Below are positions 54,100-55,875 of a DNA stretch of 64,000 nt, in pieces. The notes beneath the pieces were generated by a model. It did not search any database, was not told where the DNA came from, and saw nothing but the letters and a program-made list of their open reading frames with translations. The translations under genes and the position numbers were made by a program. The DNA comes from Candidatus Falkowbacteria bacterium RIFOXYA2_FULL_38_12. Lineage in GTDB: Bacteria; Patescibacteriota; Patescibacteriia; XYB2-FULL-38-15. Where the stretch lies: NCBI GenBank assembly GCA_001778095.1, contig MFGA01000006.1, positions 6,169 to 70,168 of the forward strand. Direction: 5' to 3'. Each line of letters opens with the position of its first letter. The stretch's first letter is position 1.

Positions 54100-55875
54100 T
54101 TTTGAGAGTTTGATCCTGGCTCAGGATGAACGCTGGCGGCGTGTCTAAGGCATGCAAGTCGAACGGCGTGCTTCGCACACAGCTTGTAAAGTTGAAAGTT
54201 TGTAAGGTTTATAAAGTTTTTGGACTTTATAACTTTATGAACTTTAAAAACTTTGTAACTTGCGTGCGAAGCGCGCAGTGGCAAACGGGTGAGTAACACA
54301 TTGATAACCTACCCCAAAGTGTGGAATAACTCCGCGAAAGCGGCGCTAATACCACGTACGATCTCGATACTAATGTGTCGGGAGGAAAGGCCCGCAAGGG
54401 TCGCTTTGGGAGGGGTCTATGGCTTATCAGCTAGTTGGTAAGGTAATGGCTTACCAAGGCTATGACGAGTAGCGGGCGTGAGAGCGCGACCCGCCTCAGT
54501 GGGACTGAGACACTGCCCACACTCCTACGGGAGGCTGCAGTCGAGAATATTCCCCAATGGACGAAAGTCTGAGGGAGCGACGCCGCGTGCAGGATGAAGG
54601 TCTTCGGATTGTAAACTGCTTTTCTCTGGGAAGAACATTGACCGTACCAGAGGAATAAGAGGTTGCTAACTCTGTGCCAGCAGCAGCGGTAATACAGAGA
54701 CCTCGAGCGTTATCCGGATTTATTGGGCGTAAAGGGTCCGTAGGTGGTTTTATAAGTCTTCGGTTAAATCTTTGGGCTCAACCCAAAGGCTGCCGGGGAA
54801 ACTATAAGACTTGAGACTGGGAGAGGCAAGCGGAATTACCGGTGTAGTAGTAAAATGCGTTAATATCGGTAAGAACACCAAATGCGAAGGCAGCTTGCTA
54901 GAACAGTTCTGACACTCAGGGACGAAAGCGTGGGGAGCAAAACGGATTAGATACCCGTGTAGTCCACGCTGTAAACGATGGGTACTGGGCATTGGAAGTA
55001 TCGACCCTTTCAGTGCCGCATATCAAAGCTAACGCGTTAAGTACCCCGCCTGGGGAGTACGGCCGCAAGGCTAAAACTCAAAGGAATTGACGGGAACCCG
55101 CACAAGCGGTGGAGCATGTGGTTTAATTCGACAATAAGCGTGGAACCTTACCTAGGCTTGACATGCTGGAAGTAATCTCGACGAAAATTGAGAGGACCGT
55201 TAAATCGGATTCCAGCACAGGTGCTGCATGGTTGTCGTCAGCTCGTGTCGTGAGATGTTCCGTTAAGTCGGGAAACGAGCGCAACCCTCACGGTTAGTTA
55301 AATTTTTCTGACCGAACTGCCCCCCACCTTGGGCACAAGCATAAAGTGTAAACTCTAAATCCAAAATCCTAAACTCTAAACAAATTCAAAATACTAATTT
55401 TCAAAATTTCAAACAATTTTGTTTTGAACATTTGAATTTTAGTCATTAGATATTGTTTAGGATTTAGTGCTTAAGATTTAGGATTTATTACTTTATTAGT
55501 TTGCGAACAAAGTGGGGGGAGGAAGGCGAGGATGACGTCAAATCAGCATGGCTCTTACGTCTAGGGCTACACACGTGCTACAATGGCCGGTTACAATGGG
55601 AAGCAAAGTCGCAAGGTGGAGCAAATCCCTCAAAGCTGGTCTCAGTTCGGATTGGAGTCTGCAACTCGACTCCATGAAGTCGGAATCGCTAGTAAACGCG
55701 TATCAGCCACGGCGCGTTGAATACGTTCTCGGGTTTTGTACACACCGCCCGTCACGCCAAGATAGTCGGGGATGCCTGAAGTTGTCCGCAAGGGCACCGA
55801 AGGTAGAATCGATGATAGGGGCGAAGTCGTAACAAGGCACCGGTAGCGGAAGCTGTCGGTGGATCACCTCCTTTC
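54100..55875 (+). rRNA. rrs: 16S ribosomal RNA gene, about 1.78 kb, with expanded helix 6 and a repeat-element insertion in the helix-40 loop region
   Basis: 5' AGAGTTTGATCCTGGCTCAG, 3' GGATCACCTCCTTTCT, conserved blocks (GTGCCAGCAGCAGCGGTAATAC, ACACACCGCCCGTCAC). Two insertions relative to a canonical 1.5-kb 16S. Confidence 0.95.
55349..55487. repeat. Repeat family E copy 3 inserted inside the 16S rRNA gene
   Basis: Same arms as 13011-13249 and 20621-20759. Flanked by 16S sequence gggcacaagcataaagtg ... aaagtggggggaggaagg. Confidence 0.75.

Follow-up and report, generated by a model that had tools for sequence, protein, structure and literature searches.

A member of a dispersed palindromic repeat family in helix 40 of a Candidatus Falkowbacteria 16S rRNA gene, with a possible intervening-sequence fate

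The classical intervening sequences (IVSs) of bacterial ribosomal RNA lie in helices 9, 25 and 45 of the 23S rRNA of Salmonella, Leptospira and Coxiella, and 16S IVSs are rarer. Where bacterial IVSs come from has been an open question since 1990, with the ‘remnant of a transposition event’ as one hypothesis. In the candidate phyla radiation (CPR), nearly half of the 16S genes carry insertions, and the short ones that lack an open reading frame (ORF) have been described as uncharacterised, perhaps IVSs. Short uncharacterised insertion sequences in CPR rRNA genes were reportedly noted by Brown et al. in 2015, with the transcript result known through later papers. In 23S rRNA, RNase III cuts out hairpin IVSs, the ends are not religated and ribosome function is kept; the origin of these IVSs has been called unclear, with a transposable-element-like derivation as one idea (PMC4990558). 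Two other sources report CPR rRNA insertions as removed from transcripts (PMC11270868; PMC9297842), and the first of these proposes that short, ORF-less, non-intron insertions are RNase III-type IVSs. Here we describe such an insertion in Candidatus Falkowbacteria bacterium RIFOXYA2_FULL_38_12. The window, by which we mean the whole 64,000-nt stretch of DNA that was analysed (GCA_001778095.1, contig MFGA01000006.1, positions 6,169 to 70,168), contains a 16S rRNA gene whose helix 40 is lengthened by 189 nt, and the core of this extra sequence is a copy of a palindromic repeat, here called family E.

The insert resembles classical IVSs in several respects. It is not an intron and extends a conserved rRNA helix at its apical loop, its complementary ends form a long stem, its occurrence among close relatives is sporadic, and its host genome is reduced and has one rRNA copy only; by analogy, cleavage by RNase III without religation would be expected. 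It differs in that it lies in helix 40 of the 16S rRNA and not in 23S rRNA, in that the whole insert is palindromic and ORF-less, and in that its source can be identified as a repeat family dispersed in the same genome and in many phyla. Helix 40 was not found among the described IVS sites, in a comparison that did not extend to the site map of PMC11270868. Similar also are the short uncharacterised CPR rRNA insertions (Tsurumaki et al., 2022; Tsurumaki et al., 2024), which come from the same group of organisms, are ORF-less and non-intron and are mostly shorter than 200 bp. The earlier CPR surveys classed such inserts by exclusion, whereas here a repeat family, covariation in a sister species and copies in tRNA spacers are available.

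Compared with Correia/NEMIS elements, Rickettsia palindromic elements, ERIC sequences and REPINs, MITEs and palindromic repeats that can land in genes and RNA genes, family E is likewise small, non-coding, multi-copy and hairpin-forming, and its host range, which includes both bacterial phyla and archaea, is far wider than is known for any of them. Those repeats are 100–170 nt long and are tolerated in transcribed or coding sequence, and Correia elements are RNase III targets once transcribed. Unlike them, family E is built of 7-nt units, and no target-site duplication, transposase or RAYT was found for it. The insert can also be likened to eukaryote-type expansion segments, in that it lengthens the tip of a helix on the surface of the subunit, to an extent that varies among lineages. 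Such segments are retained and usually stable within a lineage, whereas here genus-level relatives have exchanged the central hairpin, and mobile intergenic copies match it. CPR rRNA insertions, including short ORF-less ones, and the RNase III mechanism of IVSs were already known. What is new is the assignment of an insert in 16S helix 40 to a dispersed palindromic repeat family, the comparative evidence of constraint at the RNA level, the related hairpins in other helix tips and in inter-tRNA spacers, and the cross-domain range of the repeat family.

The gene and the layers of its helix-40 insert are as follows:

54098-55874, plus strand: 16S rRNA gene, matched by Rfam RF00177 SSU_rRNA_bacteria with 1415.6 bits over model positions 1-1533; full length, core intact.

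55326-55514, plus strand: all extra sequence of the helix-40 loop, 189 nt, a cmscan insertion forming a predicted long imperfect hairpin coaxial with helix 40.

55326-55348, plus strand: 5' half of the framework extension, ACCTTGGGCACAAGCATAAAGTG.

55349-55487, plus strand: full-length copy of the family-E palindromic repeat, with a 5' arm of TAAAYYC-type heptamers and the 3' arm GTTTAGGATTTAGTGCTTAAGATTTAGGATTTA.

55488-55514, plus strand: 3' half of the framework extension, TTACTTTATTAGTTTGCGAACAAAGTG.

The window holds one complete 16S gene, from a member of Candidatus Falkowbacteria (CPR, Parcubacteria) in groundwater of the Rifle aquifer. Relative to the covariance model the gene carries two insertions, one of 90 nt in the loop of helix 6 and one of 189 nt in the loop of helix 40. 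The latter falls between model positions 1157 and 1162 in a cmscan alignment of 55100-55900, flanked by CUGCCCCCC and GGGGGAGGAAGG. Because this is the loop of the hairpin that follows helix 39, the site is assigned to helix 40 (E. coli about 1161-1175). The extra sequence therefore occupies the apical loop of a conserved rRNA helix and leaves the core intact, as IVSs do. The original prediction had placed the insert in this same loop at 55325-55518, only a few bases away from the borders given by the covariance model.

Only part of the 189 nt is repeat. The repeat proper comprises 55349-55487 (139 nt), while the outer 23 and 27 nt belong to an older extension of helix 40. Motifs of this framework recur in related 16S genes, ..CTTTGCGCGCAAGCGCAA.. 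on the 5' side and ..GCTTGCGAACAAAG.. on the 3' side, around central hairpins that are unrelated to one another, and the GCGAACAAAG motif of the 3' half is kept in many relatives whose central hairpins differ. The view of the whole insert as one element thus stands for the core and gives way for about 50 of the 189 nt. The core has terminal inverted repeats, with arms at 55349-55413 and 55423-55487 that are 72% complementary. Being short and non-coding, with several dispersed homologous copies, it shows these hallmarks of a miniature inverted-repeat transposable element (MITE).

Two intergenic copies of family E share the window with the insert:

20620-20760, plus strand: copy B, between a tRNA gene (20535-20606, minus strand) and rmuC (20808-21860).

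13011-13249, plus strand: copy C, its arms split by a nested G+C-rich palindrome at about 13063-13190.

Searched by blastn against the window, the insert matched 20620-20760 with 81% identity over 142 nt (E 1.6e-31), and matched 13012-13047 and 13215-13251 with 97% and 92% identity, respectively. The latter two are the arms of copy C, which are separated by about 165 nt of foreign sequence. The homology of the insert core to both intergenic copies, as it had first been proposed, is borne out by these alignments, and no further significant copy of the insert was found in the window. An nhmmer profile of 49 copies, all taken from other organisms and none from the window, recovered the insert at 55350-55484 (E 4.6e-23) and copy B at 20620-20757 (E 1.9e-25). 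The nested palindrome of copy C, which reads ..TCATCCCGAGCTTGTCGA..TCGACAAGCTCGAAATGACAG.., looks like a second repeat family in its own right. It also occurs in a relative, L236, at another site (about 9800-9950; 87.5% identity over 48 nt). The right end of copy C provides the TAA stop of a minus-strand ORF at 13240-14199. The spacer orthologous to that of copy B holds different palindromes in two relatives, L239 and L236. More generally, clean empty sites were not found for copies B and C, the orthologous spacers in L236, L238 and L239 holding other palindromes. A G+C-rich palindrome at 33293-33360 (TGTCATCCCCGCGCAGGCGGGGATCC...) resembles by eye one that L239 carries at the site orthologous to copy B (about 5155-5250).

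Beyond the window, a 27-nt pattern of the 3' arm, TTTAGGATTTNGTGCTTANGATTTAGG (25 specified bases), matched 105 stretches in a collection of species-representative genomes, where about 0.001 matches would be expected by chance according to our own estimate. The matches are all in metagenome-assembled genomes (MAGs), with several per MAG, and since some of the copies lie on contigs of more than 1 Mb, mis-binning is unlikely. Bacterial hosts come from more than 10 phyla and include many CPR lineages, Dehalococcoidia, Chloroflexia, Pirellulales, Phycisphaerae, Verrucomicrobiota, Gammaproteobacteria, Nitrospirae, Acidobacteria, Binatia and Calditrichota. Archaeal hosts include ANME-1/Methanophagales (several MAGs, each rich in copies), Syntrophoarchaeum, Methanosarcinales, Methanomicrobiales and Halobacteria. 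The copies are for the most part complete hairpins, 100-170 nt long, and those of ANME-1 have an extra conserved outer inverted repeat, TGCTCAATA...TATTGAGCA. The 7-nt units place TAA in the 5' arm and TAG in the 3' arm every 7 nt, which yields stop codons in all six frames; the tolerance of family E at gene ends may follow from this.

In blastn, the helix-40 copy is 70-82% identical over 120-143 nt to single copies in Berkelbacteria, Moranbacteria, Dehalococcoidales, Phycisphaerae and ANME-1, and is thus as similar to the copies of other phyla as to copy B of its own genome. Because this similarity persists across phyla despite near-neutral drift between sister species (see below), movement between hosts is indicated rather than ancient vertical descent. 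Identities from global alignments between copies were discarded, as shuffled controls reached 70-80% under lenient gap costs, and blastn and nhmmer were used instead. No family-E match was found in plasmid, phage and IMG/VR collections, no match to any Rfam family was obtained, and all-against-all clustering of ORFs revealed no protein family that recurs near the 105 copies. Family E is not mentioned in the searchable literature, where a sequence-text search returned only unrelated bisulfite primers. Nothing relevant was found that links MITEs to Patescibacteria, or MITEs to IVSs and rRNA.

The region 55310-55535 folds into a single long hairpin that extends helix 40 (-74.2 kcal/mol, z = -8.1), and in a dinucleotide-shuffle test 0 of 200 shuffles were equally stable. 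The same element occupies the same site in L157, a contig from another Rifle sample. The L157 16S core is 99.7% identical to that of the window (3 differences in 1030 nt); its flanking DNA is only 86-97% identical in aligned blocks, and L157 is therefore most likely a sister species. Within the approximately 200 nt of the insert the two differ by 14 substitutions and one 2-nt loop indel. The insert sequence thus drifts about 20-fold faster than the rRNA core, roughly at the genomic rate, while its pairing is retained. RNAalifold of the two sequences gives 79 pairs, of which 2 show compensatory and 6 one-sided changes and 0 are broken, so that the complementary ends form an extended stem-loop of the kind seen in IVSs.

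Ten of the 14 substitutions fall on eight predicted pairs, two of them changed on both sides (C-G to G-C and U-A to C-G) and six on one side. When the same 14 substitutions were moved to random positions that have the same base, all pairs were kept in 3 of 100,000 trials (P about 3e-5). The six one-sided changes are all swaps between G-U and Watson-Crick pairs on the rRNA sense strand, with none of the A-C type; a bias of this size has a chance of about 1 in 64, which is suggestive but not proof. Since G-U pairs form on the sense strand only, the other strand having a C-A mismatch, the constraint appears to act on the transcript and not on a DNA cruciform. With no predicted pair broken and one-sided changes that are valid on the sense strand only, the hairpin seems to be transcribed and selected as RNA. 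We conclude that it belongs to the transcribed 16S gene, that in the folding model it forms a long duplex, and that selection maintains its pairing; the comparison of the two sequences makes it likely that the element is constrained as sense-strand RNA. A family-wide comparison of plus- and minus-strand folding energies (87 copies, the plus strand more stable in 62) was dropped as evidence, because the borders came from the plus-strand fold and the copies had been picked by their conserved 3'-arm pattern.

We then compared helix 40 with that of at least 120 related metagenomic 16S genes, retrieved by a 24-nt lineage-specific 16S anchor; helix 40 could be read in 119 of those listed. A plain helix 40 capped by a tetraloop (GNRA type in the printed examples) is present in 83 of the 119 listed relatives and an expanded one in 32. 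Eight relatives on this list have only a short extension of 27-34 nt without the long central hairpin, while in 24 the insertion is long (83-185 extra nt) and in nearly every case an A+T-rich palindrome of 7-nt units. Genus-level relatives hold long hairpins of different sequence (GAAATTT type in L211, TCAAAAC type in L246), and L244 has none, which suggests that the site has been repeatedly re-occupied or overwritten. With expansions in 32 of the 119 listed relatives, none in L244 and a helix-6 insert that is also variable, the presence of such hairpins among close relatives is sporadic, as is typical of IVSs. The L244 16S gene (5676-7819), without a helix-40 insert, contains LAGLIDADG_1 and LAGLIDADG_3 ORFs and therefore carries intron-type insertions. 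In L245 (6382-7855) and L247 (6460-7907), a diversity-generating retroelement (bAvd and reverse transcriptase) comes after trmD in place of the 16S gene.

Hairpins of a similar build are found elsewhere in and near the gene:

54177-54266, plus strand: second 16S hairpin insertion, in place of the tip of helix 6 (V1), a cmscan insertion of 90 nt at model position about 80.

56618-56712, plus strand: AAAGTT-type heptamer hairpin that fills the spacer between the tRNA genes 56543-56614 and 56717-56790.

The helix-6 insert (fold z = -7.0) is absent from L157, L211, L244, L245, L246 and L247, which have a normal short helix 6, and by this sequence comparison it is specific to the window lineage. 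Its arm mismatches are 9 of the G-U type versus 1 of the A-C type on the sense strand. The inter-tRNA hairpin is likewise absent from L157, where the empty site reads GGCA-TTTT-CGGGG versus GGCA-TTT[..]TTT-CGGGG when filled; the apparent TTT duplication is ambiguous, the hairpin sitting in a T-run. As both hairpins are missing in L157, such hairpins have been gained or lost within 0.3% of 16S divergence. A similar AAAGTT-type hairpin is found at 24479-24581. The helix-6 insert shares heptamers with the hairpins at 24479-24581 and 56618-56712, with no significant BLAST match between them, and we do not claim homology. In L233, the 16S gene (442-2343, minus strand) has three hairpin inserts, in helix 10 (125 nt), helix 17 (149 nt) and helix 40, the last two being homologous to each other (77% over 126 nt). 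Downstream tRNA genes of L163 and L140 are separated by copies of the helix-40 insert (81-94% identity) that fill the intervening spacers.

Downstream of the window 16S there is no 23S gene; four tRNA genes and several protein genes follow. Across 54098-57211, tRNA genes alternate with small protein genes after the 16S gene, for example one for a pterin-4a-carbinolamine dehydratase (56807-57124). Helices 17 and 39 of the window 16S are shortened, and its 515F primer site reads GCCAGCAGCAGCGGTAA, with one mismatch to the usual primer.

Taken together, a real insertion of a repeat-family member into a functional 16S gene is very probable. For the events that surround it we lean, with modest confidence, towards an account in which a family-E member at the tip of helix 40 shares the fate of an IVS. 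In this account, helix 40 would already have been extended when a family-E member of about 139 nt became lodged at its tip, by some transposition mechanism or by recombination between similar hairpins. The pre-16S transcript would carry the element as a roughly 90-bp imperfect, mostly A-U hairpin coaxial with helix 40. As for classical IVSs, the long duplex would be cleaved by RNase III and its hairpin lost to degradation, so that the mature 16S rRNA would comprise one piece of about 1.2 kb and another of about 0.36 kb, joined in the head of the 30S subunit through tertiary contacts and what is left of the helix-40 stem. A hairpin at a helix tip or in an inter-tRNA spacer would be either trimmed off or solvent-facing, which would make such places safe to land in.

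Excision by RNase III without religation, which we argue by analogy, is the fate that we prefer, at about even odds. It is favoured because the duplex is a generic RNase III substrate, because RNase III genes are present in related CPR (contigs L173 and L188), and because IVSs and CPR insertions provide published precedents. The IVS-like behaviour within the clade points the same way, with helix-40 expansions in only some relatives and homologous hairpins in other helix tips and in co-transcribed inter-tRNA spacers. Several observations weigh against this account. No RNase III signature was found in the window, in a search that covered the window alone and not the rest of the genome. The framework holds small hairpins with stable tetraloops, as a designed-in rRNA expansion would, and pairing is kept along the whole hairpin and not just at its base, which is equally expected of a retained segment. 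The arm mismatches of the helix-40 hairpin, unlike those of the helix-6 hairpin, have no sense-strand bias (5 of the G-U type versus 6 of the A-C type). As regards arrival, no empty helix-40 site was found in a close relative, no consistent target-site duplication was seen in the flanks of 65 extracted copies and no filled and empty family-E pair was found, and a search of 8-kb flanks yielded no transposase or autonomous element that shares the ends. Pairs of arms 2-4 kb apart in L020 and L099, considered as a possible autonomous element, proved to be separate small elements that flank ordinary genes, and no copy with an ORF between its arms was found. The term ‘MITE-like’ in the original prediction is therefore only partly warranted: it fits a small, palindromic, multi-copy sequence that clearly moves between genomes, and it lacks the target-site duplication and cognate transposase that were looked for.

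The main rival to excision is retention, and the original prediction had allowed for both. The hairpin would then escape cleavage, and mature 16S rRNA would keep it as a long addition to helix 40, exposed to solvent on the head of the 30S subunit and tolerated or mildly useful. We regard this as a serious possibility, if a doubtful one. It would account for the preservation of pairs over the entire length, distal ones included, and for the conserved framework with GNRA- and CUUG-like mini-hairpins that surrounds a variable hairpin in many lineages; the long helix-40 hairpins in the window, L157, L211 and L246 likewise suggest long-term tolerance. Against it, a long, near-perfect double-stranded RNA is what RNase III generically cleaves in organisms whose relatives encode the enzyme, and CPR rRNA insertions are absent from transcripts according to published summaries. 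Furthermore, the 20-fold faster evolution of the insert and the swapping of the central hairpin for unrelated sequences among relatives are atypical of a functional part of the ribosome.

It is unlikely that the hairpin is an ancient, vertically inherited feature of helix 40 which evolved in place by heptamer slippage and self-templated repair, and which resembles the intergenic copies through shared constraints only. Every close relative that shares the truncated helix 39 does have some long heptamer-built hairpin at this position, the orthologous sites of copies B and C hold other heptamer hairpins with no clean empty site among them, and the lack of a target-site duplication and a transposase would be expected on such a history. 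However, the core is 81% identical to copy B over its full length and just as close to copies from other phyla (70-82%; profile E 5e-23), a similarity that drift at about the genomic rate between sisters cannot hold. In addition, the sibling hairpins show clean presence and absence at helix 6 and in the inter-tRNA spacer.

A new type of spliced intron, in which the hairpin is removed and the 16S halves are religated by, for example, a protein-dependent pathway, is very improbable. Secondary sources do describe CPR rRNA insertions as removed from transcripts, and often as introns. The insert, however, has neither a group I or group II signature nor an ORF: no intron family reached the Rfam gathering threshold anywhere in the window, only generic and plant miRNA-hairpin models matched 55300-55540, far below threshold, with E values up to 10, which signifies a long hairpin and no more, and the largest ORF wholly within the insert encodes 25 aa. 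The original prediction had said as much, and on this point it holds. No self-splicing chemistry is known for a plain hairpin, and a bulge-helix-bulge splicing system for rRNA is not known from bacteria.

An assembly chimera, a mis-joined repeat or a 16S pseudogene is hardly credible, given that the core is intact and 99.7% conserved and that the 16S with both inserts recurs in four long assemblies that are independent in sample and assembler, namely NCBI (GCA_001780335.1, contig MFGQ01000002.1), JGI (another sample), ENA MEGAHIT and ANAN16. These are identical or differ at six positions, all of them outside the inserts. Some short contigs do stop at insert borders, L007 at 55324 and L005 and L010 at 54151. 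The first position is the first helix-40 difference between the 16S sequences of two co-occurring sister species and the second lies about 15 nt before their helix-6 divergence, so the breaks can be attributed to assembly-graph bubbles where the two sequences part. The homologous yet diverged insert of L157, with its compensatory changes, also speaks against a chimera, and it answers the suspicion that the element might be missing from sibling genomes. A strain variant in the ENA assembly ERZ27254807 (L001) has five clustered 16S differences (54970, 54971, 54987, 54989 and 54996) that leave the inserts unaffected; from their positions, these may be compensatory changes within one helix.

Tentatively, family E and its heptamer relatives may be selfish hairpin modules, each of about 130 nt, and together make up a cross-domain class that has not been described before. 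Such modules, with stops in six frames and a strong bidirectional hairpin, may spread between bacteria and archaea by transposase-independent or trans-acting means, and may persist preferentially where transcripts are processed, that is, at rRNA helix tips, in inter-tRNA spacers and at gene ends.

For the short uncharacterised insertions of CPR rRNA genes, the present locus provides a concrete origin in a recognisable copy of a dispersed genomic repeat, and it lends support to an old proposal, in which IVSs descend from sequences that resemble transposable elements. On the practical side, amplicons become longer through such inserts, assemblies break at the rRNA genes that contain them, and 16S surveys of CPR can be biased. 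Of all these findings, the cross-domain repeat family most deserves to be pursued. If the proposal of selfish hairpin modules is true, they would be the long-sought source of bacterial rRNA IVSs, and in CPR they may act as RNase III processing or insulator units of rRNA-tRNA operons.

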